51,112 nt of DNA from Nemertoderma westbladi (GCA_032718475.1 JAUCBJ010002254.1:1-51112); one strand, 5' to 3'; numbered from the stretch's first letter, positions 7,576 to 49,246 are shown. Numbers and translations are program-made. The notes: generated by a model not told the origin, from the sequence alone.

Positions 7576-7618
7576 TACCACTGACGACGCGCGGGAAGCG
7601 TGAAATAGCTATATGGTA
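7576..7618 (+). ncRNA. Minimal type I hammerhead ribozyme
   Basis: TACCA-CTGACGA-C-GCGC-GGGAA-GCGT-GAAA-TAGCTA-TA-TGGTA. Predicted cleavage after AUA at 7613. Has one extra nucleotide after A9. Confidence 0.75.
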
Positions 7619-14540: not shown

Positions 14541-15228
14541 TTATATATATGGACGGGGAGTAGGTATTCCCGTTATTTCGGCGACCATCCGCAAACACAA
14601 ACCAACAAAAAATAAGTAATTGATATGGTCAAGCCCGAACCAATCACTTAAATTTACTTAGGTTCCCTTTGGTATACTCAGAAAAACTCCTACTTCAATT
14701 GTCAGTATTCCGTTGGCGAGTAATAATACAATAGATGTCATTAACTACCCAGTCCTCTGGGATGAAATCTGAATTTGGTTGCACAGCACAACCCCACAAA
14801 TTGGGCATTAACATCAAGGTGGGGTCGAACCGGTTACTTAGTAATATACCAACTCATCGATAATAATCACACCAACCAAACCTCTTGGTATCTACTTTCT
14901 AACTGGAAAAATTTAATCACACACAGAGTTTATTAGGCCTAATTTGACGATATCCATTAATGAGTGTTTCCCGAAATTATAAATTTTAAATGCTTATAGT
15001 CCTACAGAAACCTACGAACAAACATTAATAAAGCGTCCCTTAAACGTTGATACAGAGTTTGCCTAATATATTTATTACAGTTGCATTTCAACCACAATTT
15101 ATTTATTTCTTACAGAAGTTCTTCAGGAGCCAAAGATTTGCCAAAATCAAATTTAATCATTCCAATACCAACATGTCAGGATGTAAATATAGAGTAAAAC
15201 AAATTTCTGAAGAATTATTATAAACATT

Positions 15229-17050
15229 GTTGGGCGAGCGACGAAAGTAAGCGAGCTTAGCATACAGTTACCACTAACTCAATCGGTGTGTCTGTTGTGG
15301 GGCGAGCGACGAAAGTAAGCGAGTTTAGCATACAGGTACCTCTAACTCAATCGGTGTGTCAGTGGAGCGAGCGACGAAAGTAAGCGAGTTTAGCATACAG
15401 GTACCACTAACTCAATCGGTGTGTCAGTGGAGCGAGCGACGAAAGTAAGCGAGTTTAGCATACAGGTACCTCTAACTCAATCGGTGTGTCAGTGGAGCGA
15501 GCGACGAAAGTAAGCGAGTTTAGCATACAGGTACCTCTAACTCAATCGGTGTGTCAGTGGAGCGAGCGACGAAAGTAAGCGAGTTTAGCATACAGGTACC
15601 ACTAACTCAATCGGTGTGTCTGTTGTTGGGCGAGCGACGAAAGTAAGCGAGCTTAGCATACAGGTACCTCTAACTCAATCGGTGTGTCAGTGGAGCGAGC
15701 GACGAAAGTAAGCGAGTTTAGCATACAGGTACCACTAACTCAATCGGTGTGTCTGTTGTTGGGCGAGCGACGAAAGTAAGCGAGCTTAGCATACAGGTAC
15801 CTCTAACTCAATCGGTGTGTCTGTTGTGGGGCGAGCGACGAAAGTAAGCGAGCTTAGCATACAGGTACCACTAACTCAATCGGTGTGTCTGTTGTTGGGC
15901 GAGCGACGAAAGTAAGCGAGCTTAGCATACAGGTACCTCTAACTCAATCGGTGTGTCTGTTGTGGGGCGAGCGACGAAAGTAAGCGAGCTTAGCATACAG
16001 GTACCACTAACTCAATCGGTGTGTCTGTTGTGGAGCGAGCGACGAAAGTAAGCGAGTTTAGCATACAGGTACCACTAACTCAATCGGTGTGTCTGTTGTG
16101 GGGCGAGCGATGGAAGTAAGCGAGTTTAGCATACAGGTACCACTAACTCAATCGGTGTGTCTGTTGTGGGGCGAGCGATGGAAGTAAGCGAGCTTAGCAT
16201 ACAGGTACCACTAACTCAATCGGTGTGTCTGTTGTGGAGTGAGCGACGAAAGTAAGCGAGTTTAGCATACAGGTACCACTAACTCAATTGGTGTGTCTGT
16301 TGTGGGGCGAGCGATGGAAGTAAGCGAGTTTAGCATACAGGTACCACTAACTCAATCGGTGTGTCTGTTGTGGGGCGAGCGATGGAAGTAAGCGAGCTTA
16401 GCATACAGGTACCACTAACTCAATCGGTGTGTCTGTTGTGGGGCGAGCGACGGAAGTAAGCGAGTTTAGCATACAGGTACCACTAACTCAATCGGTGTGT
16501 CTGTTGTGGGGCGAGCGATGGAAGTAAGCGAGCTTAGCATACAGGTACCACTAACTCAATCGGTGTGTCTGTTGTGGGGCGAGCGATGGAAGTAAGCGAG
16601 CTTAGCATACAGGTACCACTAACTCAATCGGTGTGTCTGTGGGGAGAGTGCTGAAAGTAAGCGAGCTTAGCATACAGGTACCACTAACTCAATCGGTGTG
16701 TCTGTTGTGGGGCGAGCGACGGAAGTAAGCGAGTTTAGCATACAGGTACCACTAACTCAATCGGTGTGTCTGTTGTGGGGCGAGCGATGGAAGTAAGCGA
16801 GCTTAGCATACAGGTACCACTAACTCAATCGGTGTGTCTGTTGTGGGGCGAGCGACGGAAGTAAGCGAGTTTAGCATACAGGTACCACTAACTCAATCGG
16901 TGTGTCTGTTGTGGGGCGAGCGATGGAAGTAAGCGAGCTTAGCATACAGGTACCACTAACTCAATCGGTGTGTCTGTTGTTGGGCGAGCGACGAAAGTAA
17001 GCGAGCTTAGCATACAGACAGGTACCACTAACTCAATCGGTGTGTCTGTT
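15229..17050. repeat. 68-bp (65-bp variant) tandem repeat, about 27 copies
   Basis: Unit GGGCGAGCGACGAAAGTAAGCGAGCTTAGCATACAGGTACCACTAACTCAATCGGTGTGTCTGTTGT(G/T). Period is 68 (15841 to 15909) or 65 (15361 to 15426). Confidence 0.97.
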
Positions 17051-17929
17051 GTTCTGTTGTTCTCTCGTTCTGTTGTTCTGTTGTTCTGTCATAATTATAT
17101 GTCAAAATTATGTAATAAAGGTAATCTATCTCTGAGGATACATCGCCTGGGCTGCTCTCACATTACTGTTTGGCGCTGCAAGTTCAAATCCGACTAAAGA
17201 CTGTATAAATTTCGCACCCTAGACAAGACCCTTTAGATGTCAGTGCACACAAACCCAACAGGTAAATAGTGTGGCGACCTTCCTGCTTTAAAGGGAGATA
17301 AGCGTGAATGTGCGGATTAAATGCATAATAAAATAAACCTACAGTGAGTAACCAAACATAGCAAACTTACACGAAGTCGCTATACAAAATCCTCAAGGCT
17401 GGCAAAATACAATTAATTGTAAACTAAAGAAATCGAACAAGCTTTATACATTCCAAAGAAAAGGAAAATAAGCCATTTTAACTGGAGATTGTAACTTCAA
17501 ATTCTGTAAATTATTTTTCAAATTCCCTAATGATGAAACTGTCTCAAACGTTTCAAAAGGGTTTCTAAATGATACTTGAACTCATTCTCTGATGGGGGGA
17601 CACCATCTTATTGATCACTTATTGCATTAATTTTCCAATTAATACCACCTCACACCATGGCAGGGTCACCATTTGATCAGAGAAATTTCTATTGACATGT
17701 ACCGCGGGCCGGATTTGGAGCAGCATTCAGCACCAGTTAGCTGAACAAGGACAACATCCATTAGCTACATTGTTAACTACTTGATAAAGTTTGATGTGAT
17801 CGAGTTCAGGTTGTCAAACAATAACGTTATGAAGTTCTGATGTGATAATATCATCGATGAGCGAGGCAAATAGGTTCGTATGCCAGCATCTACTGAGATG
17901 TCAGATGTCACACAGAAATCAGAACTCAG

Positions 17930-18614: not shown

Positions 18615-19950
18615 ATTGGGATCCATAATCCCAGGTAGGAGAAGTCATCCAATTACACCTAAACTAAGGCTATGCTAGTAAGCTTAGTAAGCTAACCTTA
18701 GAGATTATGGTTGCATATTTAAATATTCCCTGAGGACTGTTGAAGTGAACTGTCAAAATTTTGGTCTTGGAATTAGCAAATATATCAATTCTAATTAAGC
18801 ACTATGTCTTATGCCTGTTCCAATGAGATGGGGAGCTGTTGGGCTCCCTCTAATGATTCTGAGAGTACCACTAAGTTATCAGCAAAAGTCTAGATCAGTT
18901 AGGTACTTGGCAGGATTTCCTCGACTTCAGGAGCCAGTAGGTGGAGTTACCATCACCCCATCATCATTATGATGATCTAAGTCAACCACAATTGAATAAG
19001 AATGGTGCTAGTGTGTCACCCTGGAAAACTCCCCTAACACAATGGATCTGTGTCACCATCAACAGTAGACACAAATGTTGTTGAACCATCGTATACTGAT
19101 CTGATTGGTGCAATAATTTCATCAGGAATCCCATATAATGAAAGTATGCTGAACACACGTGAGCGAGAGACTGAATCAAAGGCCTTGAAGAAGTCAACAA
19201 AGATAACAGCCATATGACAGTCTTTCTTTTTTGATAACTCTTCAATTATCCTTATAAGTGCCAAAATGGGCTCCATGGTCCCACGACCTTTACGGAACCC
19301 ATTCTGATTTCCACGGAGCAGTCTCTCAATGGGATCCCTGATGCGATTTAATAGAATTCTATTATATAGCTTTGCACCAATCGGGATCAACGAGATTCCA
19401 CGAAGAGATCCATAGAGTGTTGGGTTGCCCTTCTTGGGAACTGGCACCAACTTATTTGTTTTAATTTCTTGTGGGACGCTCTTTGTACAAGTCTATATAA
19501 TAGGGTAAATGAGCTCCACAGGGGGGGGGGGGGGGGGGGGCATTTACTTCACTGGCACGATTGGTCTTAATGATCTTTGCAGCAGCAGCCTTGACTTCAG
19601 CAACGGAGATATAACCAATTGGTACATCCGGGAGTACAGATGTAAAGTGGTTCGTTGTTGGTGGTTCCCAGTCAGCAAGTTGGTAGATTTCCATACCTGA
19701 GCTGATTGCCTGTGGTCATCGGCATCATTGATGGCTGTTCAGTATGTGAGTTGTTTGATCCTGGTGTCTTTCGCCTTGAGTGTGCCATGCTCACTTATGA
19801 AAATCCACCACCAACGGGGAGAATACCTATCTATAATGATATCATCATGCAAGAGAATTCCTTTCCCCAGCATCACAAAGAATATTAAACCCAACATTAT
19901 CATGGCATTGGTGATCCTACTGCGCTTGTTGGATCAACCATCACACTTCT
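18615..19950 (-). mobile_element. RTE-type LINE, copy 3 (decayed RT region)
   Basis: 18830-19450 is nearly colinear with copy 2 (VPVPKKGNP, QNGFRKGRG, FVDFFKAFDSV, GVFQGDTLAPFLF). Outer limits are approximate. Confidence 0.88.
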
Positions 19951-20536
19951 TCCTTATCATGGCATGAGTGAACTTGATTCTCTTGATATATACCTTCTTC
20001 AAATTCTAGACTTGGGACTCCTTAAATTTACTGGTGGTGTATGTAAAATAATATTCTAATGACAGGTGGTGATGGTGATAATAATTAGTATCAGTCTATG
20101 ATGGGAATCAGAGCCAGAATATGGATCTCTCACTTGACCAAGCCATTTTATCTTTGAATTCGATGTTGGGGTTGGGCTTCCAATAACTTAGAGTCATTTA
20201 TTTCAAGTAGATTTGAAATTGCCCGATAAATGGTTGTCAATTTCCTTTAGATTGTATACCTGCTTTACTTCCTTAGTGTCGGATTGTTGTCTATTACCTC
20301 CTGTCATCAAGCAAAAATGTGTAAACCAAATTTGTAAATAATCTGGCACTGGAGGATTGCACATTCTTGCTAGAACAAAACTGAGCTTAGATCTCCACAA
20401 TTGGGGCCTGTGTGGGACTGTGGGTATACATTTTTCCAGACATCTTCAGAAAGTGAGTCAGCCATTTCTAAATTTAACGTGGTTGCTGTACAGACACCCA
20501 AAGGCTTATGTGACCCGCCAAGTGACAATTAAATCT

Positions 20537-20605
20537 TAGTTGCGTTCGACCTCTCGCTCTTTTTACAATCTTACAGTACTATCTAACATCTTACAGTAAT
20601 TTTTA
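20537..20605 (+). repeat. 69-bp direct repeat, left copy (probable TSD)
   Basis: TAGTTGCGTTCGACC...CAGTAATTTTTA is identical to 30440-30508. Confidence 0.9.
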
Positions 20606-20888
20606 TTCAGGTCAGGTCAGGTATTCTAGGTCATTGATCAAGAAAACTTGCCACCTCCATGCAGCATAAAGGAGTTGCCACCTGTAGCTGCATAGACCCT
20701 CTTACTAGGGCAAATCTGGTCCTGTAACTAGGACTGTAAAAGCTTTTGGGGATATAACTGGCCTTTTCCATTTGTAATCCAGTTTTCCCCCATTCGCTCA
20801 AATCCTCTAAACTGTTGCTTCTAGTGGCACAATCTGCCCGCTGGTTGGCTGATTTGCTGTACGTATGGCCTCTTTGTTCTGTTCGATT

Positions 20889-20920
20889 AACCAATCAGAA
20901 CAATGATCGACCAATCAGAG
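20889..20920 (+). promoter_or_regulatory. Two CCAAT boxes (RACCAATCAG), 20 bp apart; possible internal promoter
   Basis: CCAATCAG at 20891 and 20911. Motif match only. Confidence 0.3.
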
Positions 20921-22189
20921 CGATTTAGCCTTGTGTTGGCTATGGGCTGCGAAGGCTAGGGAGGTTTGACATTTAGACATTCGTGGAATCTGTGGAATAT
21001 GGAACTCTGCCAATGAGAGCTTTTCCTCTTTGTGTTGAAAGCTACCTGCAACAGCTCACAGGGTTCAGTGTGTTGGTTTTCCTGATGCCATGAACATCGG
21101 CTATGGAATTATTCTGAATTATTCCAACATTAGAACGGCTTTAATTATAAGAACACATAACTGTTACCGGTACAGCGGTACGAGACACTAAGAACACATA
21201 ACGGTACGGTACGTATTGCACATTATTTACTGCTATTTGCTGTTTGTTATTAATTGTATCGGTTGTTTACATATTGTTATTTGGAGAATAACGATAAACG
21301 ATCAGAAACCCCGATCTTCTTGATACACTAAGGTTAGAGAGACCGGCTACATATAGCAATTGCGACTTATATTATCGTGGTTTGTAGTGAATTGAATGCT
21401 ATTTTATAGGCCCTACAAATGTCGGTTGCTATTCTCTTTATATATGATTAAAATCAGTGACTATCGGCAATTCAGTGTGCAGCGGTGTGCAATAGTCTGT
21501 ATGTGCTTGTCCGCGTAACAAAGCATCTCCTAAAGAATGCGCCTTATGTGTAACTTATAATCCATTCCGTTGTGTTTAGTGTAAGCCATAGCTCTGTTTA
21601 TATAGATAGAGCGCCACGTCCTAAAGGAACTGCTAATATTTCCCGAAAGTGAATAATATTTGTCAGAGATTATATATTAACGATCAATCGAATAGTACGG
21701 TAGGCCTGCACCGCAATCAAATTAAAGCATCCGAATCCAGTCTCCCGGGTATATCCAGCGGGTGAATGGTCGCGCATAGACTGGCTTCGGCTAATGTTGG
21801 ATTTATTTGTGTCAAATACTTGTCATAGGCTAAAGTCGATTTATAACCTAGAAGACATATAGATTTGGCGGGTTAAACTGCCAAAGGTCTTAAAAGCGCG
21901 AACAGTAACAGTTATAGCTTCTTGATTGCGGCGTAAGCAATCAAGTTGATAGTACCGGTCGACCGGTAACCAGTAGGCCTGACTGCCTGATCACCCGGAC
22001 CGGTACTTACAACAGTACAAGTACAGCAGTATTATTCGATTTGATAATTATATACCTGTAGGCCTTAATAATTAATCAGGGACTGCAGCCCTGGTTTTTT
22101 ATTGAGATTTTACTTATTTCTGTCAGTTTTATTTATTTGTAGGCTAATATTGAGCAGAAGGCGTGTAAGCCTGCTCAGATTGTACAGAC

Positions 22190-22768
22190 AATTTGTAGGC
22201 TAGATTGTTGTCTGACTGTTGTTAAGTCTGAACGGATTGCAGTGTGTGTAGAGCATCTGTCCGATAAAGTGCTAGTTAGGAACGTAGGGGCTTCAAGTGC
22301 TGTGAGGTAAACCCCCTTTGAAAGAATAAGTCGTACTACTAGGTTAGAACGCATACTAACTAATCATTTCGGAGTCTGCATATACTGTAGTTTATTTAGG
22401 CTTGATAGTAGTCTGCCATCGTTTGGTCTGTACTTTGTTTGTGTAGTCTGTACAGGTAGCGTATAATTCTTATTTAGATAATTTGTAGGCTGGATAGTTG
22501 TCTGGCTGTTGTTAGGTCTGAGGAAATTTCGGTGTGTGTAGAGTGTATGTCCGATAAAGTGCCAGTTGGGAACGTAGGGGCTTCCAGTGCTGTGAGGTAA
22601 ACCCCCTCTGAAAGAATAAGTCGTACTACTAGGTTAGAACGCATACTAACTAACCATTTCGGAGTCTGCATATACCGTAGTTTGTTTAGGCTTGATAGTA
22701 GTCTGTCAGTATTTGGTCTGCATTTTGTTTGAGTAGTCTGTACGCGTAGCGTAATATTTATTATTCAG
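22190..22768 (+). repeat. Diverged 290-bp tandem duplication in the leader of the gag element
   Basis: AATTTGTAGGCT starts both units (22190 and 22480). The units are colinear with scattered substitutions. Confidence 0.92.
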
Positions 22769-23971
22769 AGTTTATGCGATTATTCGCAACATTCATATCC
22801 CCAAGTTTATTCCTACAGTAATTGTGTTTGTTATACATACCGTTATAGTTAAACTAACCCCGGTACTACATCAGGGCTGCTAGGCGTAGGTAAAGACTGG
22901 AGATTTTGTGCTTTGGTCACTCCGGCAGATACCGTGGTTCTTTTAGCTGTTCAAGTATTTTAACTACTGATTATTTGTTGTATAAGCACTTGTACCTAAT
23001 TTAGGGTTTAGTGTACAGTGCTTTCCGAAGGTGATTAGTGTGTAGGCAGTATATTTGTGTTGTAAAGTGGTTAATAGGCACGTTGGTTCTGGTAGACCGC
23101 GGTAATTAACTTCTAGGTAGGAACACTCCGTGATACATAACGTAGTACTTATAGCGCCACGGCTATAAGTCGTCAGACGGTGGTATTTTTCTATCTGGAC
23201 AACGCAGTATATTTACTACTACTTATTATTTTCAAATACCGTAGTACCCTGTCCGTTGTAATAACCAGATATTCTAACCCTTTGTTAGGCTGGTTAGTAG
23301 ACTTCTTGTAAAATTACCCTAAAAATTCGTACTTGTAATTTTTGTGTTTATTTAGAGATTGTAATCTCACCCCGAATTGTACGTAATTTGTAGTATTAAG
23401 TAACTTAGGTAAATTAGAATTATTTGTTTTAGTGTCCAACAAGTAGCACTTCACTGAGAGCGCACAGCTTCTGTGTAGTGACTCCCCCCCCAGAAATAAT
23501 AACATTTATTTCAAATATTGACAAAAACCCATTAAACGGGTATATATATTATAAATCAACTCAAACCGATTTATAAATAGTAGGCCTGTCATACAACAAT
23601 TAGGTCTAAATATCAGTTGGACTACTGCTTAAATAACGGTAATAAAGTAAGTTAAAGTAACCAAGTAACCCTTAAAATTCAGAAATTCAATTATTCTAAA
23701 ATAATTGACATACCGGTATTTACAATAGGCTTATTATATTTATTTCTATAAATTTTAGGCTGAAATTATACCGGTATTCTGTAATTAATTCTAGTCTGTA
23801 ATAATACTTATATATACTATAAGCATACTGGTATTCTAATATATTATATATATATCACGCTACACTGAGTAGCAGTATCGGTAATTAATTACTAGGCTAA
23901 CAGTTGATACTGAATTACTAAACTTGCTTTAACTGTAATATAGCAGTAGGCATTCAACTGTACAATCAAAC

Positions 23972-26900
23972 ATGGCTGACACAAGGCAAACTCTGTCAGA
24001 TAGTCTCCTAGAAACAACAGTCTGTTTCTCAGATAGGAGTATAGAGAATCCCAGACCGAGGTCTGAGACCCCTCCTACTGTAAGAAAGGCAACCCCTACA
24101 GTAGCTGTGTCAGAACCTAGGTTAGTAGAAGCAATTTCGCAATTTGCGAAGTTAGTGAAGCGCCATAGGTCTATCATAGGCACTCGAGCTCAGGTCAAGC
24201 GGGACCAAGAAGCGGCAGAACAGCAACAACCCGCGAGCCAAGAACTTATTTCTCAACGGCCCGACAGCTCCAGTAGTGAGGATACTGTAGAGCTGACACC
24301 CGAGCGCGGAGCAAAGATGACGGATGTGGTTTATTCGGATCCCCTTCTCATCCTTCTTGCAGCCGTACTCACTAGGTTATTGATTGCGGTGGAAGAACAC
24401 CAGATCGATTGGGCGAGAAGTAAGCGATCGACTAAAGATAGTTATGCGGGATACACAAGGGAAGAACTGAAGTCTATTGTCGAGTCGCAATGGAACTTCC
24501 CCGGACCCGGACTCCCGTTTGATTTATCAGAAGCTGCCTGGGAAGATATACACAGGATGGGAGTAACCAAGGAAACCATCGATCCAGCTGTGTGGAAGAG
24601 GTCCGCAGCCGGATACGTACAGGGATTCGTCAGCTCTATGGAGCGATTAGAAAAACAACTGTTTCAACAACCCCAAGGACCTCAAGAGCAGGGACAGCTG
24701 CTTTATCAAGTTAAAGAAAGAATTCTACGAATCAGGCTAATCTTATCGGCCTTTGAGGAGGCTTCTAAAAGAAGACAAGACACGTCGTTGCAAGTTGCCG
24801 TAAAGACTTGGTTTCAACGGGTGAGCCTCCAGGTGCAAGGAACGACTCAGTGGAAAGCCCAGCTGGATGAGCGCTCAACCCATGGAGAATCAACAGACGC
24901 TACTTTTTCCCAAGTGGAAAGTGAAGCGGCGGCAGAGAAGCCGCATAAGAGGGATGCCATTGACATCTATCTATCGGACTATCAACGTTTTGTAGGAGAT
25001 GAAGAGTTGAGGAGAAGACTAGAGGGGCTTAGCCCTAATAGTGAAGGAGCCCAGCGTGTGTTGGACGCAATCGATGTGGATAGGTTAGCTGCGAACCAAG
25101 CTAAATTCAATGAAAGCATCCGCATCGCTAAGGTTCAAGAAGAACAAGTAAAGAAAAAACGTATAGAAGATAGAAAGACAGCAGCAGCGGCAGTGGCAGC
25201 GGCAGAAGCGGATAGAAAAGCGGCAGAAGCAAAAGCGGCAGCTGCAGCAGCCGAAGCGGAAAGAAAAATAGCAGTGGCAGAAGCAGAACGGAGGGCATCT
25301 GAAGAGACAACCCAACTAGAGTTGGAAAATCTTCAAGAGAGGCAAGACAACTTTAATAAACAGTTAACAGCTAGTAATATGCAGATAATGAATCGATCTA
25401 CTCCCAAAAGACAAGGTTATACATCATCTGAGGAAGGCGATACCACCGATCCTGAAGGCGGAGGAAATCGATCTCGCCTAAGCAGACGTAAAAGAATGTC
25501 CCACCGTCAGAAATTGCCTGATTTGCCCCCAGCTGTTAGAAGGCAACTAAATAACACAAACTTAGGTAGTACAGAACCCACAGACCAAATAATTAAAATA
25601 GAAAGACTCCCTACTATAGTAGATGAGCCTGAAATAATTAGGCCTGTTCTTGAAATCACCCCTTCGATGATAGAGACACCTGTACTCCCAGAACCTACCT
25701 TTAAATTCCCTTTACACAGCACCAAATTATCTGTGCCTAGAGGAACAGCCCCTGAAACAGTGTCGGTCCTGGACTCCGAGCGAAATATAAAGGATATATC
25801 GCCCGTAGTCCCTCGTCTGCCCGCTACGACGTTGGCGGATCCCGCTTCGGCGGTTGATTGGGTAGACGAGAGACGGCGGGGGATGGACATTCTCCTCGGA
25901 GAGATGAAGGAGAATCGAGTGCGCTCCTCCCAACAGGTCCGAGAGTTAGAAGGGACTGTTCAACAGTTAAAGGGAATCGTAAAGGAAAGTAGGTTAGAGT
26001 TGCAAGAAGTGCAGCAAAGTATCGCGCTAGAACGCGATAAATTAGTAAATTTACAAAAGGGTATATCACCATCCTCTGTAACAATATGTCAACCCGTTAG
26101 GTCTGAAGTATCTCATGCGCAAGGTGTGGAGCCTACACGCATCTATACTGCTAGCGAAGTAGAAACTCCTATAGTAAACCCTATTAAGGGTAATTATCAA
26201 CCTGTTGACAATGATATCCCATATAGACTTGATAATAATCCGAGAAATTTATATACCGATAACTCGATATTAAATAACACGATGGCCCAAGAAAGTTTTA
26301 CGCGTCAAATGGCTAGAACCGAAGCCCGTCAAGCGGTAAAGGTGGGAGAAATCGTCAAGTTCAATGGAGATGAGATGAAATGGTTACCTTTTAATGAATA
26401 TTACAAAGATAACATACAGAACTCTGTACTATCTAATGGAGAGAAACTTAGATTCCTCATCGAGTGCTTGGAAGGATCTCCCAAGTTAATGGCGTTAAAG
26501 TTTATTGGACATCCAGACGGATTAAGACAAGTTTGGGATACACTAAACATCAGGTATGGTAATAGGAATAACATAGCTGGGTATTTGTAGGCAAAGTTGG
26601 TAGCGCCCCGAAAGTTTATTAGCAGCGGGATTATAGAGTTTTCCGATGAGATTCAGGAGATCTGCAGACAATTAGATTGGCTAGGTAAGTCTCATGAGTA
26701 TCAGAGTGCTATGGTTATTAGAGCAGTGGCTTCTACTTTACCGAAGGGTGGAGTAGGTACACGCTGGGACAAGAAAGTGTTATATATGATGGAACAACAA
26801 CAACGAGACCCTACCATGGCTGATCTCATGTCATTCTTGGATGGCGAAGTGAAATTACAGCTCATAAAGCAGTCCAGAGAGAAGACACCGGAAAACAAGG

Positions 26901-27721
26901 TAAGTGAGAAACCCGTCTCTAGGAGAAAGGTAACACCAGTGTGTTATACAGACGACGGCGAAAGCCAGACTTCTCAAGGAGAGGATAGCGGGAAAGACAC
27001 TGAAAGATCTTATTATGTCAATAAAACGCCTAAAGAACAGGTAAGTAAATTCAAGTCTCGAACCAATGACAGGAGAGAACAGGTAAGAAAAACTCCTCCT
27101 ACGTCTCCCAAGAGAATCCAGGTGAGAAAGCCCGAAGAAAGAACGAGTGTGCACACTGTTATTCAAAATAAGGTAAGTAACATCAAACCGAAATGTGCGC
27201 TATGTGACGGGCCCCACCGTTTGAATATGTGTGATAAATTCCTAAAGAAATCATTAAAGGATAGACGTGAAGTCATGTGGGATAAGCGGTTGTGTTATAA
27301 TTGCCTCAGACGAGGACACCAACGGCGAACCTGTTACTCCGACGCAAGGTGTGCAAAGTGCGGTGCGAAACATCATATCTTGTTGCACACTGAATTTGAG
27401 CGAAACAACCAGAGTCAGGTAAGTGATTCCGAACTACATGTCCAATTCAGTGATGTGAACGACACTGACCAATATTCTGAGATGGAAGGATTCTATACGG
27501 ACGAATTCTCCGACGAAAACGAATCCTGTTACCTGACAAATACCGCAGTGTATCGAGCACTTACGTATGAAAAGGACACCGACAGCGAGCTCCCCCTAAC
27601 TACTTCGGACAGACAACCATCTTGGAAAGCACCAACTTCCAATGTAGGAATCCGAGAATTTCCTGTAGTACAGTTAAGGGTCCACGGACCTACGGAGTTA
27701 TATAGTGAACGCCCTCCTTGA
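23972..27721 (+). CDS. gag: Bel/Pao-type Gag with a very long N-terminal extension; interrupted by one in-frame TAG (26588-26590)
   Basis: The 872-aa and 374-aa ORFs are in the same frame. A DUF1759-like capsid region (KFNGD..KW..F, EKLRFL..CLEG, L..RYG) spans the stop. Three knuckles, [27 protein letters not shown] and [13 protein letters not shown], match the Bel/Pao pattern. Confidence 0.88.
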
Positions 27722-28622
27722 CTCCGGTAGCACAGGAACATTCATCGACAAAGAACTAGCCGAAGACATCTTTGCTGGACAACCCAAGTTCCGAACTAAG
27801 CTAAACATGTCAGAAATTATGCAGGTTTGGAAATCTACCGTAATAGCGGATTATTATGTAGGCGCGTTGTCCACCCCCCAGGATGAACTAGGAGAACACA
27901 GCATAAGGTCAGTAAAAATGGTAGCGATAAAGAACTTCGCGACCAGCCAAGTGGAACCTTATAACTGGGATGAGGACGATTTCACCCAGCAGCTTGAAAT
28001 ACCTAGATTCAACACCGATTACCCTGGAGTCCAAATACTCATCGGTCAAAATGCGCATGAAGCGCTCGAGACATTGGAGAAACGGCCTGCTCAACCGCAA
28101 CCACTACAAGTCTATGCGGGAAGAACTAGAGTAGGTTGGTACTTTACTGGCCCTTCTCGTAGAACTCTTATGGAAAGATTACCAAAAGAACAGGTATATC
28201 AATTAAGTGAACGGGAAGTGGAGAGCAGTGAAGTTGACGACCCAACTGAGGGAACACCATACTCCTCAGATAATGACGACATCAACCCCAATGTAGATCA
28301 ATGGAGATATTGCCCCGAGACGATCAATCTAGCCGACATCGCCTCCAGAGGAGCAACTCCTCAAGAACTGACAGATACTCCAGACTGGTTAGGTGAACCC
28401 GACTTCCTAAGTAAAGAAGATGAATGGCCTCCCCATCTTAACCCGGCGAAGATTAGACAGGCCAAGGGAGCGGAGAAAGTAACACAACCACTCAATCGCC
28501 CAGCTGGTCGTTTATGTTTACTGGAAAGAGACCGAAAACTGTCCGGAAACTATGGAAGGCAAGATACTCTTCCCACGACCACTTCCCTAATCCAACAAAT
28601 ATCTAGGGACTCCATAACGTAA
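27705..28622 (+). CDS. Aspartic protease fused in frame to short pol remnants (no RT, RNase H core or integrase core)
   Basis: [18 protein letters not shown] and RTRVGW (protease and linker), then QWRY.P...NLADIASRG...WL...DFL...EWP, then [11 protein letters not shown]. It is in the +1 frame relative to gag near 27695. Confidence 0.85.
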
Positions 28623-28630
28623 CAACATAC

Positions 28631-28930
28631 GGAGTGGGTGTGTGACTATATTATTTTATATTTATTTTATTATTTTATATTATGTATGTATTATTATGTA
28701 ATTTTATTATAATCGTTTTCTTTAATTTTATTTAGTAGAATGTTATTTTAGCGATTATTTAGTAGATTAGTGCAATATATATTCGCGTTTATTACTTAAT
28801 TACTTATATATTATATTTAGTGCGACGGCGAGAAATAATTCTTTTTCTCTTTCCTTACTGTCCGTATCATATTATAAATACGTGACTACAGTAAGATAAA
28901 ATATCCGTACTTATTAAAGTACAATAAAGC
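28631..28930 (+). promoter_or_regulatory. Possible relic of PPT and 3' LTR start
   Basis: G-rich GGAGTGGGTG is followed by TGT (28641) just after the stop codon. TATAAATA at 28873 and AATAAA at 28923. No 5' counterpart was seen. Confidence 0.35.
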
Positions 28931-29173
28931 TCCTACTATATTCAAGTATTATTGGTAAAGTAGAGTATTAGGAATGCAAAGTTCAGATCCTCGTGTCTCG
29001 GCTAAACCAAGCTCTGGGTAGACCTTGGAAACGACTTGCCTCTTCTCACTGACATTGCTTCGTGCGATATTGCTCTCATACCGTATATTAAATAATACAT
29101 ATAGTAGCGTGATGTCCCTTTAACAGTAGCGTAAAACGCAAAATAAATCTGTTAAACCCTTTGACCATCTGTA

Positions 29174-29435
29174 ATTCTAGTCGATTAAGATATCGTGGCA
29201 CCCACCGATATACTTGAAAGACAAATTCTAGAATCAGTGGTTAACGTCCCCAGACAAGTTCTGGAATAAACTGGTGCCCATCCTAAATATTAATTATTAA
29301 TATTTACAAAATCTGTCAAATTTTAGATCCTTTAACATTCTAGTCGATTAAGATATCGTAGCACTTACCGATACTCTTAAAAGGACAAATCCCTAGAATC
29401 AAGGATCCCAGTCCCCAGACTTGTTCTGGAATAAA
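29174..29435 (+). repeat. Two copies of a roughly 97-bp hairpin-forming module in the 3' UTR of the gag element
   Basis: 29174-29270 and 29337-29435 share ATTCTAGTCGATTAAGATATCGT...CCGATA...CTAGAATC...GTCCCCAGAC..GTTCTGGAATAAA. Confidence 0.85.
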
Positions 29436-30439
29436 ATTGTGTCTATTTAATATTAAATAATAAAATTACGGGAATAAATTTAAATTCATCTTTTAATGAA
29501 TTTGATAAATTGTTATTTTATACAATTTATAATATTCCCCAAATTCCATTAATTAATAGATCATGGGAGCGGAAATTCACCTCTTAAGTGTATTAGTGTG
29601 CGAGAATCTCCGACATATAGTCAATACCCAATAAAATTAATAAAATCATGTATAGAGAGGATATTGACAATTAAAGAATTACTATTAAATAGCATCCCAG
29701 ATCTGTATGCATGAGAATTACCCTAATTCTACCGCTAGCTTTCCATAATGTCACCATAGTAACAGCCACGCTAGAATTAGAAGTGAGTTTAAAGAACAAT
29801 AAAAAGCTTGCCCATTGAATAGCATACGGAATAAATAGCACACCGCTAGTATCCAAGGATACATAATAACAACGTGACATTCTGGAAGGCACTTGACTAA
29901 CGGACAAATGACCCGAATGTGTGATAGAATGTGTACCATTTGTGACAGTTACGTGGAATTTATGCGTTTGTAGGTGAATGTTACTACTAAGGTGTGTTTA
30001 CAGTAGCGAGTTGCAATTGTGAAAGTAACCCTAACTCTCCAGTAAGAACCTGAAGTATATCTAAGCCTTTGGGACGGACGGTGGAGTGACTTGTGCTGGT
30101 TGTTGTAGTCGTTGTGCAGCTACGACGTTGGCGATAGGCACATCGACGAAAGTACACCAGCGCTGAGGATCTTGCACTGTCCGGGGGCAGAGAGGGGTAG
30201 GCAGCGACGCCCGCTAGCCTAAATATAAACTCATTATAATATTAATAAACTCATATAGCAGATATGGCTGAGTTGATAGAAGATGATCTTGGTATCAGGG
30301 AGCGATATACTATACCTTTACAGGCGTTTGTTGATAGCTTGATACGCGGCGACGCTGGTCCAACTACTACGGAGGACGATGGTCGTTATATCGAACCGCC
30401 GATGTCCCAGGAGCAACTTAATGCCGATCCTAGTAGTAG

Positions 30440-30508
30440 TAGTTGCGTTCGACCTCTCGCTCTTTTTACAATCTTACAGTACTATCTAACATCTTACAGT
30501 AATTTTTA
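30440..30508 (+). repeat. 69-bp direct repeat, right copy (probable TSD)
   Basis: Identical to 20537-20605. Its first bases (TAGT) are continuous with the (TAG)n tail. Confidence 0.9.
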
Positions 30509-30535
30509 CATTATAAAGAGCCAGAATGAGTCCCG

Positions 30536-30982
30536 AGCACTCACGGGCGCATGGGCCGCTCACGGCACATAAGCTGCTCACGGGCACATGGGCTGCTCGC
30601 GGGCACATGGGCTGCTCACGGGCACATGGGGTGCTCACGTGCACATGGGCTTCTCACGGGCACATGGGCTGCTCACGGGCACAGGGGGTGCTCACGGGCA
30701 CATGGGCTGCTCGCTGGCACATGGGCTGCTCGCGGGCACATGGGCTGCTCACGGGCACATGGGCTGCTCACGGGTACATGGGCTGCTCGCGGGCACATGG
30801 TCTGCTCACCTGGTACATCGGCTGCTCACGGGCACATCCGCTGCTCACGGGCACATGGGCTGCTCGCGGGCACATGGTCTGCTCACCTGGTACATCGGTT
30901 TCTCACGGGCACATGGGCTTCTCACGGGCACATGGGCTTCTCACGGGCACATGGGCTGCTCACGGGCACATGGGCTGCTCAC
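30536..30982. repeat. 19-bp GC-rich minisatellite (CACGGGCACATGGGCTGCT)
   Basis: About 23 tandem copies. These explain the three overlapping spurious ORFs. Confidence 0.97.
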
Positions 30983-31461
30983 ACTAAGCAGCTATTCCAC
31001 TAAACCCTTAGGCAGAGGCAATTACCATGAAAATTTAGTGAATAGTACACCATTATTTTTAAATACAAATTTAAGAAAAAACAGTAGACCTATTATTTAA
31101 ACACATGAGCAATTTTTATTAATTGAATAATTAATAAACTGAAATAAATTTAATCGAGAAAATGTGACTCATGGAGGCAGAGAGTGCTCTCTGGCGTATT
31201 TATTATATAATATTGTGCGCTTTATGTAGCTTGAATCTCTATTTACTTTCAGTAGCTAAACGAAAGAGTTAGTGTACGTTCGGTACGTTGTTCCTTAAGA
31301 AAATCCCAAAGGGATTTAGTGAGGGCGATGAGTCAACTCGTATGAATATAATTAAGCCTCTCTCAAACCACCGGCTTGTCACTTTAGTTCCTCTAATGAA
31401 TAGATTTACGAACCGCATAGCCTTCCTTGGGAGTGGTGATCCGATCTATGATGAGAGGAAA

Positions 31462-31876
31462 GTGCCCGATACAGTATCCAGTACAATGTCCAGTACAATG
31501 CCCGGTACAGTATCCAATACAATGTCCAGTACAATGTCCGGTACAGTGTCCGTTACAATGTCCGGTATAATAGTGTCCGATGCAATGTCCGGTACAGTGT
31601 CCGTTACAATGTCCGGTATAATAGTATCCGATGCAATGTCCGGTACAGTGTCCATTACAATGTCCGGTATAATAGTGTCCGATACAATGTCCGGTAAAGT
31701 GTCCATTACAATGTCCGGTATAATAATGTCCGATACAATGTCCAGTACAGTGTCCGGTGCAGTGACCGTTACAATTTCGAGTACAATGTCCGGTACAGTG
31801 TCCGTTACAATATCCAGTACAGTGTCCGTTACAATGCCCAGTACAATATCCAGTACAGTGTCCGGTACAATGTCCA
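31462..31876. repeat. 12-bp minisatellite (TCCGGTACAGTG-like) with 15-bp variants
   Basis: Tandem degenerate copies, giving repetitive translations on both strands. Confidence 0.93.
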
Positions 31877-34464
31877 TTGGTGCCCTGTTTGATCACTAAT
31901 GGTTTTCGCATTCATTTGGGATTAACTACCACCACAGTTTATATACATTTCAGCTTTCCATGCCTCCAAAAACAATTTTAATATTATTAAACTCAGATAA
32001 TCATTTAAGTAATGCATTAGCAGCGCCATCACCTGGTTTCATGCGAATTTCCAAGATTGTCACAATTCATTACTACCAGTGGAATTGTGTCCAATGGGCT
32101 TGTTGAGCTTTAGTGTTTCGCTTTACTACAACAGGCCAATGCGAAGTGACAACTGTGAACGTCTCCCTTTGGGAAGCAACCTCGTTACATTCCTATAGTA
32201 TATCAATAGTGGGAATGATTTACTCAATGATTCGGATTATTTAGTTGGTTACCGATGGGCAATTAATTGTGATACCAATTTCCTAAGTAATAAACTAATT
32301 ACACAAAGTGGTTGTAAAAGTTTTCTTTAAATGTTTTATTAATTAATTTATTTATTGCTTATTTTATTCACAAATTGTAACAATTAATAAACTCACAACC
32401 GATGTATATAGGTTATAGTGGATAGGTAGTTGTTCTTTCTAAATTTTTTAAATTTGGGGTTATTAAGCCACTCGTTTGAACAATTTGTCATGTTGTAATA
32501 TAATAATAGATAGTGTGCTATAAATTATTCTGTAATTTCTTTTTGAAGGAACTAATGAAAGGTACGAGATAAAACAAAACTAGTAGCATTAATACATCTC
32601 ACAAATATGTAAACAATGATCTACAGTACCTAAAAAAACATTCCTGCATTAATATATTAACTAGAATTATAAGACTTGTTGTTTATGTGTTCATCTAAGA
32701 TATAGATAAGGTTTCATTTTTTTTTCTTTAAAAAATCAGCTGCATAATATTTTATTTTATTTATTATTATTCTTAAATATTGTACACTTCGCCGATACCA
32801 AGAACTATACGATTTATCAATGTGGTATGATTTATCTTATATCTACATACTGTATATAACTTATTTTCCCGAAAAAAGCAATTTAGAGAAATCCTGATTC
32901 TACATACAGTATTATCATTACACATAACAGTTACACACATGCACTATATTACAGGTCATGGTCTATATACAGTAGTTAGTAGTTAGTACAAGTCAGACCA
33001 TACATACAAGCTGGCCTAGATACAGTACATTAAGTACATATATCATTTACTTTCGTGAAATCGTGAAATTATGATATTATCAAATTACAACAGTTACACC
33101 AATAATGTATTTATTTTTTTATTTAAATTATTTTTGGTTTATTTTCTGTATAAGTATATTCGATATCCGCGCCAGTAGTGATCTAATGAAAACTTATATT
33201 TATTGTTGAAGGGTGCAGAGACGTGAAATAACGCATTAAAAGAAAATGAATAATTAAAAAATTAAAACAAAATTTTTTTTTTATTTTTTTTTTGTTTCCT
33301 TCACTACATCTCCCTCCCTACATGTAACAAAATTGACTTGACATGCTTAACAATGTCTCAAATAAAATATTCTAGAAACAATAAATTATTTTCTGGAATT
33401 TTGCAAATTAATAGCAGCAAACAAGCTTATTCATCTCAAACTTATAACAACCAACCATACAATATACCGTCTAGTCTACCTTTTCACTTCCTACTTGTAG
33501 TTTCAGTGTACTATTATTTACAGGCCTCACACTTAGTCTACATCATGCTCTCTCTTTTGGTATTTCCTAACGTTTATTTATGTTTGAATTGTATATTGGT
33601 TACATTTATTTGTATTAAATAATATTGAATATTTGTTTAATTAATTTTATTATTAACATAAATATACAAGATAATAGCAATAGCAAATAACAATAATATA
33701 TGAACATTTTTGACGGCGGCTAGGACGGGTATGGGGGGGGGGGGGGGGGGGGGGCGTGCAAATGTTGTATGAATCAATTCCATTTCTTTTTATTTCGCAT
33801 GCCCTGTGAAAAAATCCTTGACCCGTCCCTGTTTCGAGCACATACAGATCGTCAATATTTAGGCCTACCACCAGGTCCGGTACCGCTAATAGCCATTCTG
33901 TAGGATCTGAGGATGAGACAGGTCTATCCACTATCACCAATTGCAGTATTCAGATAGTGATAGTACTGTACGTACAGTACTAGGTCTACATGTGTTACCG
34001 TGTACAAGTACCGGTACCGATACTGTACAGTAAGATAATATTAGTTAAAAAAAACTTTTTAAACTTATTTTTTGGAAATTACATGTAGTAAAAAAAAGTT
34101 AGAATAATTAACTCAATTTTAAAAATATTAGTGAGAAAAAGAGCCTTTATTACGTATATAAAATATATTATTCTTATTTGCTCTGGTGCTGGTGTTGCTC
34201 AGTGGCCGCCGAACAGTACTCATCGATACACGCAAGCTGTTCTTTCAAAAATTTCCAAACAAGCAGAAATTTCAACATTTCATCCTATGATTCTTCAAAC
34301 GGGCGTTATAATTTCATTTCAGATGGCCTGTATTGTATTTACGATAGCTACAGATAGGGGGGGAAACTGGATAGCTAAGTTCACAAATAGCCTTCATCTT
34401 GCTGCTGTATTGACAATCAATTATGCACTTCCTGCCCGAATTTCCCGCTCGCCTCACCCGTAAC

Positions 34465-35048: not shown

Positions 35049-36141
35049 GGTGTCCGGACACTTCCCCCCGGACAATCCTCCCCGGACACCCCCCCCCCCC
35101 CCCCGTTCAAGTAGGACACTTCCCCCGGACAATTGCCCCCCAGTCACTTCCCCCCGGACACTTGCCCCCCAGACACTTCCCCCCGGACACTTCCCCCCCC
35201 AGACACTTCCCCCCCCGGACACTTTCCCCCGGACACTTCCCCCCGGACACTTGTTTTCTAATTCTCTATTTCCAATTTATTGTTTTCTTCAAATTGTCAA
35301 AACAGATGGGGATGACAATTATTGATCCAATTAAAACTATACCTCTCCAGGGGAAAATCGACATGCGTCGACCTGTATTCTGTGTTCATCATTACATATT
35401 GAAAAACTAAATAAATTTCCTGGTTACTTGCAATATTTTTAATAGGATTGTGTTTAATTATATAATATTGTAGTAATTTTTATATTAATTTGGTTAACAT
35501 TCAATGGAGATCCTACTTTAGGCTTAGTCAATTTATTATCTGATGATACAAACATGAATTAATTACTTCAAAATGGTCTTAAAGTCTCTCACCACGCGGG
35601 CACACAGAGAATTGCCGGGGTTTGGGGGCGGCAGCCCCCAACCTAAGAAGCGGGGGTTTGGGAGCGGCAGCCCCCAACCTAAGAAGCGGGGGTTTTGGGA
35701 GCGGCAGCCCCCAATCAAAGAAGCGGGGGTTTGGGGGCGGCAGCCCCCAACCAAAGAAGCGGGGGTTTGGGGGCGGCAGCCCCCAACCTAAGAAGCGGGG
35801 GTTTGGGAGCGGCAGCCTCCAATCAAAGAAGCGGGGGTTTGGGGGCGGCAGCCCCCAACCAAAGAAGCGGGGGTTTGGGGGCGGCAGCCCCCAACCTAAG
35901 AAGCGGGGGTTTGGGAGCGGCAGCCCCCAACCTAAGAAGCGGGGGTTTTGGGGGCGGCAGCCCCCAATAAAAAGAAAAACAAACAAAATTTGACTATAAA
36001 AATGTTCCTTCTATAATTTTACAAAAACTTGTCCTGTAAATCTTTAACTTTTCTTTATTGCTTTGATGCCAGATTAATTTTAACACTTTAACTGGGGGGG
36101 GGGGGGGGGGGGGGTGTGTCCGGGGGACGTGTCCTAGAACC
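35049..36141. mobile_element. Non-autonomous DNA transposon with GG...CC termini, imperfect TIRs and 8-bp TSD
   Basis: Left end GGTGTCCGGACACTTCCCCC; right end (reverse complement) GGTTCTAGGACACGTCCCCC. Flanked by CTCATTAC (35041-35048) and CTCATCAC (36142-36149). Subterminal CCCCCGGACAC repeats are present. Confidence 0.7.
35616..35966. repeat. 36-bp tandem repeat inside the DNA element
   Basis: AAGAAGCGGGGGTTTGGGGGCGGCAGCCCCCAACCT, about 10 copies. Each can form a TTGGGGGC/GCCCCCAA hairpin. Confidence 0.95.
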
Positions 36142-37883
36142 CTCATCACAACAACAATTAAAAATGGCAGTTATTTCATACAGAATCTGCGGCGTTAATT
36201 TATATGCTTTTTAATGTTCCTACCTAACATTAACATGTTCTTCTACTTCTTTACTACTTTATACCTAACAGTTTATATAGACATACATTTGGAAATGTTT
36301 CTACTAGAAAGTTCCATGTTTCATATTCCAAGAGATGCGTGCCAGAACCCACTACAGTGCAACCCACACCCGTGCCGCACAATGTATATAACATTGTACA
36401 GAAGTTTAGTTTACTGGGGAAACAGAATCGACGTAACAAAAATTTCCATATGAAAATTAATAATAAAGAAGTATTAGTAGTAGTAGTAGCTCCCGGAGCG
36501 CTGTATAAATTCAAATCTTTTATAAATCACAAATATAATATAATTTGACAAATTACTGACATATTTACTCCTCGTAAAGACAATGATTGGCATCCCATCA
36601 AAAATATGTAAATATTATATTATGATTCGCCAGTACAGCTTTTACGCATCAACAGCCTTCAAAGCCACCACCTCAAGCTTGCTGAACAATGTTTCCACCA
36701 GCAGTATCAACCAGTACACAACCTTGTGCTGAGACAGCCCGGTGATGGTGAGAATTGTAATCAATTTTCACTACAAAATTTCACTACAATTAACACTACA
36801 AAAATACGTTCCCTCGGGATTCTGATTTAAATTCAATATCATTATTGCCATTATTATCCCCATCCACTTCACTCACTTCAAAACCCCTGCCTTTGCCACC
36901 CAATAATACAACAGCCTTGTCCTTCCCAGTCACCTCTAACCCTGTCCCCATGCCCACCTTGAATCGCCTGGAATTTGTGGGGCTTGCTTAGGGGCGTGGG
37001 TATTTTCCCACAGAGAACAGAGCTTTTGGCCAACCTGCTGCGCTCTAGTGCTTGCGCACTCTGCCAGCTGACTTCTCAGTTCGTCCCAGGACCAACTGCT
37101 TAGCCAGGAGGACAAAATAGCAGTATCTTCCCGGGTTTGACTCCGTCTGTTTACAGTAGTGCTTGCTCACTCTCTCTACACTTAGATGCATTGCGGGGCG
37201 ACCTTTGGTCAAACCTCTGTGTCGTAGGACAAAGTAGCAGCTAACTCTATCTTTGTCCCATTGGTCCCACCCCCATTTGGACACAGATAGTAACCTGGTG
37301 CCATATACCAGTAACACAGTCTCTACTACTCTACTGCCAGGAATGAATTACCTTTCAGATAAGGTGTAATTCCGGGTAATTTCCATTCTCTTGATAATTT
37401 GATTTATTACAGACCATGCCTTATCCTTTGATATTCCAGATCTCCAAACCAAAGATCCTAGTTTACCGAAGTGTTCTACACCACCACCAACAATAAATGA
37501 CTGAACAGCAAACGAATATCATTAGTAAAGTTTAGATATCTTCAAGTGTTCGTGATATGAAGACTTCAATAATTTTCACAGTTAAAGAAATCTTGTTTAA
37601 TTTTGCCAAATGTTTTAACACCTGATATAAATCAGCTAGCGCGGCATATGACCCGTGAGGGAGCCTGAAATATATCGGCTTACTAAATTGGGCTGGTTAT
37701 GTATCATTCGATTGATTTTCGCTATATAATTCCCTAAGATAAATAAAACGATATGTTAGCCAGTTTTCATTAATTATATTATATACAAATGGTTTAATTA
37801 TGTTTATTAGATATTACAGATAAATAAATAATATAATATATATATACAGTAAAAAAGCTCATTTATTATTATTAATATTAAAA

Positions 37884-37918
37884 TACCGAATGCATTTCGC
37901 GTTGGCTCTTCAGCGGTA
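37884..37918 (-). ncRNA. Minimal type I hammerhead ribozyme
   Basis: Minus strand reads TACCG-CTGAAGA-GC-CAAC-GC-GAAA-TGCA-TT-CGGTA. Confidence 0.8.
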
Positions 37919-37946
37919 AAAAGAAGAAGAAGAAAAAAAGAAGTTT

Positions 37947-37981
37947 TACCGCTGAAGAGCCAACGCGAAATGCATTCGGTA
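37947..37981 (+). ncRNA. Minimal type I hammerhead ribozyme (35 nt)
   Basis: TACCG-CTGAAGA-GC-CAAC-GC-GAAA-TGCA-TT-CGGTA: 5-bp stem I, 2-bp stem II, palindromic ATGCAT stem III, predicted cleavage after AUU (37976). Confidence 0.8.
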
Positions 37982-39322
37982 TTTTAATATTAATAATAAT
38001 AAATGAGCTTTTTTACTGTAGATATATATTATATTATTTATTTATCTGTAATATCTAATAAACATAATTAAACCATTTGTATATAATATAATTAATGAAA
38101 ACTGGCTAACATATCGTTTTATTTATCTTATTTCTATCGGATGTCAGCTTAAAGCAAACTACTTCTATATTAATACTAATTCCCTAAGTAATTAGTACTT
38201 AATAGTCCCTAAGTAAGTAATATCTAAGCTCACATACGGGATAGTATTAACAGTTCTGTATCAGATGTTGCGCTCAAGATATCAAACAGGTCTATTTCTT
38301 ATGGTAATTACAACAGATTGTTAACGAGAATCATAGTTTGTCACACCTTTTAGGGGTGTGGTATTATGGAACCGACTGAAATATACTCTGGGACCTGATT
38401 TACTGAGTGGACAATTTTATTTATGAACAAGGAGTTTGGTAGGCTCACGCACGTTGGGGCTATCCAATATCATATATTCTCATGCACACCACTTACTTGA
38501 TTGTGAACTGGGACTGCTAATTTACCGACCACATCTTACCTCTTCCAATATAAATAAAGATAGGTTGCGATATAATGGTAGTTAATATAGCATCATCTCC
38601 ATATCATCACCAAATCAAATGACTATCAAATCTATCAAATACTAACAAATTTAACAAAGACTATCAAATATAATATATAAACAGGTACAGCAGTAACTCA
38701 GTACAATTCAGTGTGTCACGGTGTTTCAGTACTTTGAGGTGATTCGTTACGATTGATTGGTGTCTTACCTGCTTAATCCCTCTCTCACTATCTATTGGCA
38801 ATGGCTTATGGTTAGTAGACCGTTGCCTATATTAGAATGGTTATACACTGCACCAATAAATATGATAAATATGAATACAATAGCTTTAACGTTTAATACA
38901 CAATATGACACAATGAATAGCTTGGGTGGTCATCTGACTTCCAATTTGGTTCCTTTGGCAAGGCTCCCGATTGTAAGTTGACCTTTGGAGATTGGCTTAC
39001 TATCGGGGTGCTAATAGATTTCCCATTTTGGTTATTAACTGCCTTGAGGTGACATATTGGTCTTCTGGTTGATGAAGTGCCTTAGGGATTGCTCCCTTAA
39101 GGGCGCCTAAGGGCGCCTGTAATAACAAATATAAATGTTAAATTTATTTATATATTATTTGTAAAACAATGAAATTGTTTTATACTGTATTCTGTTTGTG
39201 TAGTTAATGTAGATTCGTTATTTTTGTGTTTTACATATCTTTCTGGAACCTTGAATAGTAGAGAATGAATTATATTAGAAGACTCATCGTATGCAACATT
39301 TGATTTCTATAAAAACAAAGCG

Positions 39323-49150: not shown

Positions 49151-49246
49151 AGGGTGCTCACTGTTTAGCTCACTGCTTAAGCCCGCGGGTTAATAATTAG
49201 ATTTAGAAAAAATGAAGTAATTTTACTATAATGATATATTTGGCAG

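Follow-up and report, generated by a model that had tools for sequence, protein, structure and literature searches.

Positions 20537-30508 of a 51,112-nucleotide (nt) stretch of Nemertoderma westbladi DNA (GCA_032718475.1 JAUCBJ010002254.1:1-51112; the whole stretch is called the window below) hold an insert that codes for a Bel/Pao-type Gag and is flanked by a long target-site duplication (TSD). In this study, we found that the insert is best explained as a single copy of an abundant Bel/Pao-derived Gag-protease family, which was cut at 30420 and joined to a 19-base tail of an RTE-type long interspersed nuclear element (LINE) in one RTE-primed insertion. We put the probability of this explanation at roughly 0.7; the probabilities behind all readings weighed here are judgements and not computed values. 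The RTE tail is private to the copy at 20537-30508, which is likely a one-off accident of LINE insertion and not a member of a Gag-coding short interspersed nuclear element (SINE) family.

The right end of the insert and the RTE tail

To judge from its sequence, the right end of the insert bears the marks of target-primed reverse transcription, namely an exact LINE terminus, an in-phase (TAG)n and a TSD. The features concerned are as follows.

20537-20605, no strand assigned: left copy of the 69-base pair (bp) TSD, identical to 30440-30508
30421-30439, plus strand: RTE 3' terminus, ATGCCGATCC(TAG)3, private to the copy at 20537-30508, beginning at the 3' foot of a predicted small RTE hairpin
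30440-30508, no strand assigned: right copy of the TSD, its first bases TAGT in phase with the tail

The two repeat copies were identical at 69 of 69 positions and could not be extended in either direction, and the Gag-carrying chimera as a whole is bounded by this one TSD. Bases 30421-30440 matched the 3' end of RTE copy 1 (reverse complement of 8063-8082) at all 20 positions, the first TSD base included. The tails of RTE copies 2 and 4, which are also (TAG)n tails, resemble this sequence and are not identical to it. For the 10 non-repeat bases of the match, the chance is about 5e-7 at one given place, and 0.05 matches are expected in the window. The target TAGT is in phase with the (TAG)n tail at the right junction; tail repeats have been reported to correlate with the first TSD base (PMC4245944, PMC6007223). 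Both the perfect repeats and the exact match to copy 1, as well as the microhomology between tail and target, had been claimed in a preliminary description of this DNA, and all three stood. At its other side, the 19-nt RTE end is joined directly to foreign sequence by a blunt junction (30420|30421). In one of two folds, the RTE part starts at the 3' foot of a 5-bp hairpin in the tail of RTE copy 1, a model that weakly suggests a stall of reverse transcription; the hairpin itself is absent from the 19-nt tail at 30421-30439. An internal TSD, which would mark the gag unit as a later arrival in a pre-existing RTE-tailed SINE, was sought in the element and not found. A metagenome scan with a 19-nt pattern returned five loci; similarity to the window was limited to 19-28 nt at four of them and absent at the fifth, and all five were taken as chance.

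Three RTE-like LINE copies of the window were used for comparison.

8063-9006, minus strand: RTE-like LINE copy 1, source of the 20/20 tail match, from sequence comparison
10129-11628, minus strand: RTE-like LINE copy 2, with a reverse transcriptase (RT) domain (RVT_1, E=2e-27) and a 33-bp TSD
41743-42413, minus strand: RTE-like LINE copy 4, with a 15-bp TSD

The long TSDs previously ascribed to the local RTE family were confirmed for copy 2 (33 bp, 10096-10128/11629-11661) and copy 4 (15 bp, 41728-41742/42414-42428); a search at the flanks of copy 1 found none. The RTE copies are 0.7-1.5 kb long, and there are about four per 51 kb. The RT had 772 long relatives; relatives showed 44-58% identity, and many of the 120 listed are about 1,040 amino acids (aa) long with an endonuclease and an RT (PF14529/PF03372 and PF00078). 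This layout fits the putative RTE label, which is taken from the preliminary description and the domain layout. Copies 1 and 2 apparently have in common an internal deletion relative to copy 4, and in copy 2 an endonuclease fragment is joined to the RT, possibly as a deleted RTE subfamily. The motif TTCGACC lies within about 10 bases of the nick in the targets of copy 4 (41728-41742) and of the Gag insertion (20537-20556), and not in the target of copy 2.

The insert was compared with contigs from public sequencing runs. Seven runs were listed, six of them with part of the stretch, from four studies. Contigs of runs X1-X4 were compared over 19600-30570, and 30271-30570 was read in 10-bp bins for X2-X5. 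X2 may be the source sample of the window, X3-X5 belong to three further studies, and X5 carries another species label. The summed depth of contigs is a rough measure and not a copy number, and contigs drop rare variants. The 69-mer had single-copy depth (116 or less over 30441-30508) and is therefore target DNA; it is not an element terminus, as had been considered earlier. The summed depth fell abruptly at the edge of the RTE tail. Between 30411-30420 and 30421-30430 it went from 558,188 to 77 in X2, from 183,978 to 0.4 in X3, from 6,960 to 0 in X4 and from 13 to 0 in X5. The drop was 7,000-fold or more in X2 and X3; about 99.99% of the X2 family depth goes elsewhere, and the RTE tail makes up about 1e-4 of the family depth or less. 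Loose ends at 30418-30420 led into one common other sequence in four runs, which stand for four studies and two species labels (at least 23 contigs in X2, 9 in X3, 4 in X4 and 1 in X5, from 20 of the 49 rows). Family contigs did not stop at 30420, and X4 record 22 went on for at least another 307 nt. The abrupt fall and the shared continuation demonstrate that the family does not end in the RTE tail. The preliminary description had proposed a Gag-coding family that parasitises an RTE LINE, and had named copies without the tail as evidence against it; such copies are what four runs contain, and the proposal does not hold.

The donor family and its cargo

The summed depth in X1-X3 was 2e5-1.7e6 per bin over 21430-30570, compared with about 30-40 in the flank bin 19966-20331. 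After division by 31 for overlapping words, the depth floors were about 790-1,260 times the flank in X2 and 370-590 times in X3. The Gag unit is a very high-copy family, likely of hundreds of copies or more. In X1-X3 the depth stayed about level over 21430-30420; it neither rose toward the 3' end nor showed the gradient of 5' truncation expected of a LINE-borne family. Two joints in X2, from 30443 to 29003 and 29038, were considered as tandem or nested tailed copies and dropped, since the depth at this place was 116 or less against 168-255 for the joints. The cargo is made up of the following parts.

21430-23971, plus strand: non-coding 5' portion of the high-copy core, which includes a tandem duplication of 290 bp (22186-22769), from depth (2e5-1.2e6 per bin in X1-X3) and self-BLAST
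23972-27721, plus strand: Bel/Pao gag, whose long N-terminal region belongs to no known family, from DUF1759, CCHC and homologues
26683-27423, plus strand: cluster of seven splice-donor-like motifs inside gag, from a motif count
27678-28622, plus strand: Pol remnant in a frame other than that of gag, from alignment to Bel/Pao Pol
28623-30263, plus strand: AT-rich spacer that contains a tandem duplication of 163 bp (29174-29467) and, at 30224, a TATA-like box; family-level depth throughout
30264-30420, plus strand: first 52 codons of a further family frame in the position of env-like genes, from codon-position bias; cut at the junction

The gag frame runs from the ATG at 23972 to 27721 and contains a single in-frame stop (26588-26590), which is not shared by other family copies in the variant table. 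DUF1759 was found above the cut-off (E=1e-5), the CCHC match was weak, and the homologues found, three of three, were Bel/Pao polyproteins in a search scored over the best 7,992 candidates. Among 1.84 billion representatives, no relatives turned up for the first 770 residues of Gag; of the four weak matches from the search with this N-terminus, three concerned the DUF1759 region and the fourth a short internal stretch. In Atlas the N-terminus scored 0.76 or less, and a scan of viral contigs found nothing for gag. Among the listed variable sites of gag, 16 of 25 fell at third codon positions (p=0.002; sites from 40 of the 1,211 rows). With one ambiguous site left out, this held for 12 of the 15 segregating sites and 3 of the 9 private ones, the latter showing no codon bias. 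The third-position bias in segregating sites therefore indicates that the donor family is under selection; the copy at 20537-30508 is likely dead.

The Pol remnant aligned to residues 443-632, 1145-1199 and 1708-1717 of P0003 (the C-termini of P0002-P0004 were compared). Its parts follow in the order protease, RNase H end (from about 28299) and Pol C-terminal motif (28497-28526), with the RT, most of RNase H and the integrase missing in frame. Domain searches found no RT or integrase domain in the insert, and no end-to-end repeat other than the TSD was found in it, so no LTR pair (LTR, long terminal repeat) was seen. The depth stays high across both Pol deletion points, and the loss of RT and integrase therefore looks family-wide. 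These findings bear out the earlier assignment of a Bel/Pao gag-protease without RT, integrase or LTR pair, which had missed the RNase H end, the last Pol motif and the frame cut at the tail junction. In both non-coding regions, Pfam searches of all six frames gave nothing above the cut-off and Rfam gave 0 matches; a scan for primer-binding-site motifs yielded seven candidates by motif alone. Seven of the window's ten plus-strand AGGT[AG]AG motifs lie within 26683-27423, a clustering reached in 0 of 100,000 permutations for a motif chosen post hoc. Such a cluster of splice-donor-like motifs might supply the downstream frame with a spliced RNA, or it might protect a long transcript. An exact 15-nt repeat is shared by gag (25823-25837) and the 3' spacer (30119-30133) and is longer than the other short repeats of the element.

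In the frame from the ATG at 30264, 15 of 27 variable places were at third codon positions (p=0.014), and no indels were listed. No homologue was found among longer proteins (nine candidates, no matches), in Atlas or in viral contigs. One weak bacterial match in prokaryote genomes had neither DNA nor translated similarity to the window and was rejected. Env-like genes of Roo, Tas and Cer-7 occupy the corresponding position (PMC7642597). The missing LTR pair is probably due to the truncation at 30420, because any 3' LTR that the family may have would be located past that point.

The left end and the mode of insertion

The left end of the insert differs in copy number from its inner neighbour and was divided in two.

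20606-20735, minus strand: very high-copy piece with (ACCTG)3 and a predicted hairpin, from depth, repeat and fold; inner edge approximate
20736-21429, plus strand: medium-copy segment with two CCAAT boxes (20891 and 20911), from depth, joints and a CCAAT scan

One base from the TSD, 20607-20621 reads (TCAGG)3, that is (ACCTG)3 on the minus strand, and is among only three perfect 5-mer triplets in 38,655 non-satellite bases. The implied summed depth over 20606-20697 was 5-7e5 in X1-X3, and the X1 depth at 20773, 20835 and 20969 was merely 1.3-5e3. A minus-strand hairpin of the left piece had a fold z of -2.0, with 7 of 200 shuffles equally good. On these sequence features, the left piece is likely the outward-facing 3' tail of a second retroposon. 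Its own TSD was sought and not found, and scans with the left-end motif found nothing in viral contigs and none in prokaryote genomes. In other copies the medium-copy part is tied to downstream sequence (joints from 20903 to 21122 and from 21166 to 21221; an X4 contig over 21303-21631), and contigs extend to at least 20733-20735. The CCAAT boxes sit 285-305 bp inside the left end of the insert. At 20305 the contigs of X2 and X3 break off or diverge, and 679 bases of one X2 contig are left unmatched; this is probably another insertion polymorphism, 230 bp left of the TSD.

In the proposed mechanism, the RTE endonuclease would nick the bottom strand at T|TAG and reverse transcription would start on the RTE's own RNA. 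Copying would stop after about 19 nt, at the foot of the small 3' hairpin of the RTE, and the remainder of the insert would then be supplied by the Gag family. We slightly and tentatively prefer dual priming by two different retroposon RNAs as the route. A top-strand nick 69 bp away would prime a second, (ACCTG)n-tailed RNA, and the two cDNAs would meet in a blunt join at 30420|30421. This would account for the length of the TSD and for the tail-like sequence at either TSD edge. A template switch or an RNA ligation onto a sense Gag-family RNA is an alternative route that is hardly less probable. It is well documented, but it leaves the tail-like left end and the inner CCAAT boxes to chance. 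The one-off template-switch chimera, the second suggestion of the preliminary description, fits as a one-off chimera, although a plain template switch leaves the tail-like left end unexplained.

Several observations weigh against a one-step, RTE-primed insertion. The end of the family sequence and the target flank have 4 nt in common, CTTA, a match equalled at 123 of 6,448 positions (1.9%), which suits a two-step history better. Copying of 9.8 kb is far above the 0.7-1.5 kb of the RTE copies in the window, and vertebrate RTE TSDs are reported to peak at 10-12 bp (PMC4245944). Among the contigs of the public runs, none joining 20605 to 30509, as expected of the empty allele, was found, and none of those listed was shown to span 30420|30421. 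A profile of 120 RTE C-termini picked up copies 1, 2 and 4 but gave no score for the left piece; this piece has no microhomology with the TSD, and its identity as a LINE is putative. The residual depth of 77 in X2 may come from the Gag locus itself or from other RTE tails, and there may be a few more tailed copies, since contigs drop rare variants.

A history in two steps takes up the CTTA match most directly. A minus-strand insertion primed by the left (ACCTG)n tail would have been joined at its 5' side at 30420 via CTTA, with a TSD of about 71 bp, and a 19-nt RTE fragment would later have entered at the TAG site of the right TSD, with a 2-bp TSD. Without 30421-30441 the right side does read as the left target from 20535 on, with CTTA common to both, and the left end resembles a retroposon tail. 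We consider this history unlikely, as it needs a 9.8-kb antisense transcript and another independent insertion no more than 2 bp away from the first junction, where the window holds about four RTE copies per 51 kb. Capture by DNA repair was judged improbable. A double-strand break, started by the RTE or otherwise, would have been filled from genomic or extrachromosomal family DNA, and the RTE tail at one end would be a short cDNA whose synthesis was aborted. In favour of it, the donor family is very abundant, the insert holds promoter-like CCAAT boxes that are normally not in a sense mRNA, and templated non-L1 insertions in L1 events have been reported (10.1101/2024.08.27.596794). However, repair alone does not explain a tail-like repeat exactly at the left TSD edge, and no splicing or other mark here separates an RNA from a DNA template. 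It is equally improbable, in our judgement, that a Gag subfamily of tens of copies with the (ACCTG)n tail at its left is a 10-kb antisense passenger of a second LINE, with the copy at 20537-30508 recording dual priming. If so, the idea of a giant LINE parasite would hold after all, though for the other end of the element and with another partner.

A capsid-coding, non-autonomous family spread by the RTE LINE would account for the exact RTE end, the TSD and the tail-target microhomology of this copy, and the Gag unit is indeed a real, selected, high-copy family for which X2 retains a small depth over the tail. We regard it as very improbable, because about 99.99% of the X2 depth and effectively all of the X3-X5 depth continue elsewhere, the junction cuts a conserved frame after 52 codons, the RTE hairpin is absent from the tail, and the depth lacks the gradient that 5' truncation would leave. 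Scarcely any weight falls on an assembly chimera at the junction. Such a chimera would agree with the lack of a listed contig across 30420|30421, but a perfect 69-bp duplication and an exact, in-phase RTE terminus are not expected from a misjoin. Moreover, contigs of X1 and X3 traverse the left flank and all of the 69-mer and end, as at a branch, exactly at 20605; X3 also has a contig from 30479 into the right flank and, at 20605, a further successor besides the right flank.

Surroundings of the insert and known composite elements

Elsewhere in the window, another Bel/Pao element is represented at 1-1500 by its 3' end (end of RNase H, integrase and DUF5641); after these come a purine run and, at about 1482, TGTTG, which is likely where an LTR starts. 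Near-perfect long inverted repeats at 37735-38130, 7222-7688 and 3479-4345, with arms of 187, 171 and 132 nt, are probably of foldback or miniature inverted-repeat transposable element type. Tandem arrays lie at 42567-49200, 12598-17053, 30526-31020, 31425-31907 and 35580-35987, with units of about 49, 68, 19, 12 and 36 bp; the 19-bp array begins 17 bp right of the TSD. The sole piece of a host gene seen in the window is an exon of an ammonium transporter (50384-50779; Pfam E=4e-23), which together with the repeat content indicates an animal genome.

Chimeras made by template switching of LINEs have been described as U6/L1, U6/L2 and U6/RTEX (RTEX-2) in Anolis (PMC4476161) and as MINE (WEIRD-MGL) of Magnaporthe, with 31 copies (PMC2104539). 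Like the Gag insert, they consist of a 5'-truncated LINE 3' end attached directly to foreign sequence that has the same orientation, with one TSD around the whole, and RTE-clade elements are among their reported makers. In the Gag insert, by contrast, the foreign part is 9.8 kb of an LTR-type retrotransposon, the LINE part is 19 nt and the TSD is 69 bp instead of 10-20. Its foreign part is not full length and is cut at its own 3' side, the family going at least 307 nt further, and its left end has a tail-like repeat. Unlike the 31-copy MINE, the Gag chimera was not seen to recur.

RNA ligation, template switching and twin priming have been described for LINEs (PMC11838501), with further background on twin priming in 10.1101/2024.12.14.628481 and PMC12016303. 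Dual priming was postulated in 2010 but not validated; it could not be separated from twin priming in that paper, which concerned poly(T) only (PMC2837659). L1 bridges with two tails and templated insertions are known from cancer genomes (10.1101/2024.08.27.596794). The Gag insert would resemble products of dual or twin priming in its tail-like sequence at both TSD edges and its blunt internal junction. It differs from the dual priming of PMC2837659 in that its ends would stem from two different retroposon families and the cargo is long, the left tail being a candidate. Copying of an LTR-type element by LINE machinery with loss of the LTR pair has a counterpart in the HERV-W processed pseudogenes made by L1 (PMC6995185).

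The donor family has its own parallels in defective BEL-Pao elements with an extra 3' gene (Roo, Tas, Cer-7 and Anakin; PMC7642597) and in TR-GAG elements, in which gag and protease are kept, the enzymes are lost and an extra frame lies downstream of Pol. Unlike in those BEL-Pao elements, the extra frame of the Gag family has no detectable homologue, the 770-aa Gag N-terminus has no relatives, and LTRs of the family were not seen. No Bel/Pao-RTE chimera and no Gag-coding SINE was found in the literature searched, which was covered mostly at title and abstract level and included few subscription papers. HeT-A and HAL1, likewise non-autonomous, code for a Gag-like or ORF1 protein only and use the RT of another element; their coding part is LINE-derived, and as far as is known every copy has a non-LTR 3' end. 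The gag at 20537-30508, in contrast, is of Bel/Pao type, and the LINE tail is on one copy.

The Gag insert is thus a variant of the known LINE chimeras, with unusual proportions and a possible second primed end. As a one-off chimera it is a fossil of the capture of an LTR-type element by a LINE, a raw step toward composite or SINE-like families, in which the cargo, at 9.8 kb, and the TSD, at 69 bp, are unusually long and the LINE part, at 19 nt, is unusually short. Should the left end turn out to be a second retroposon's tail, the insert would be an example from nature of dual priming in which two different RNAs took part. The donor family merits annotation of its own: it is very abundant and enzyme-less, its Gag is under selection, it carries an unexplained extra gene, and it also occurs under the second species label (X5).

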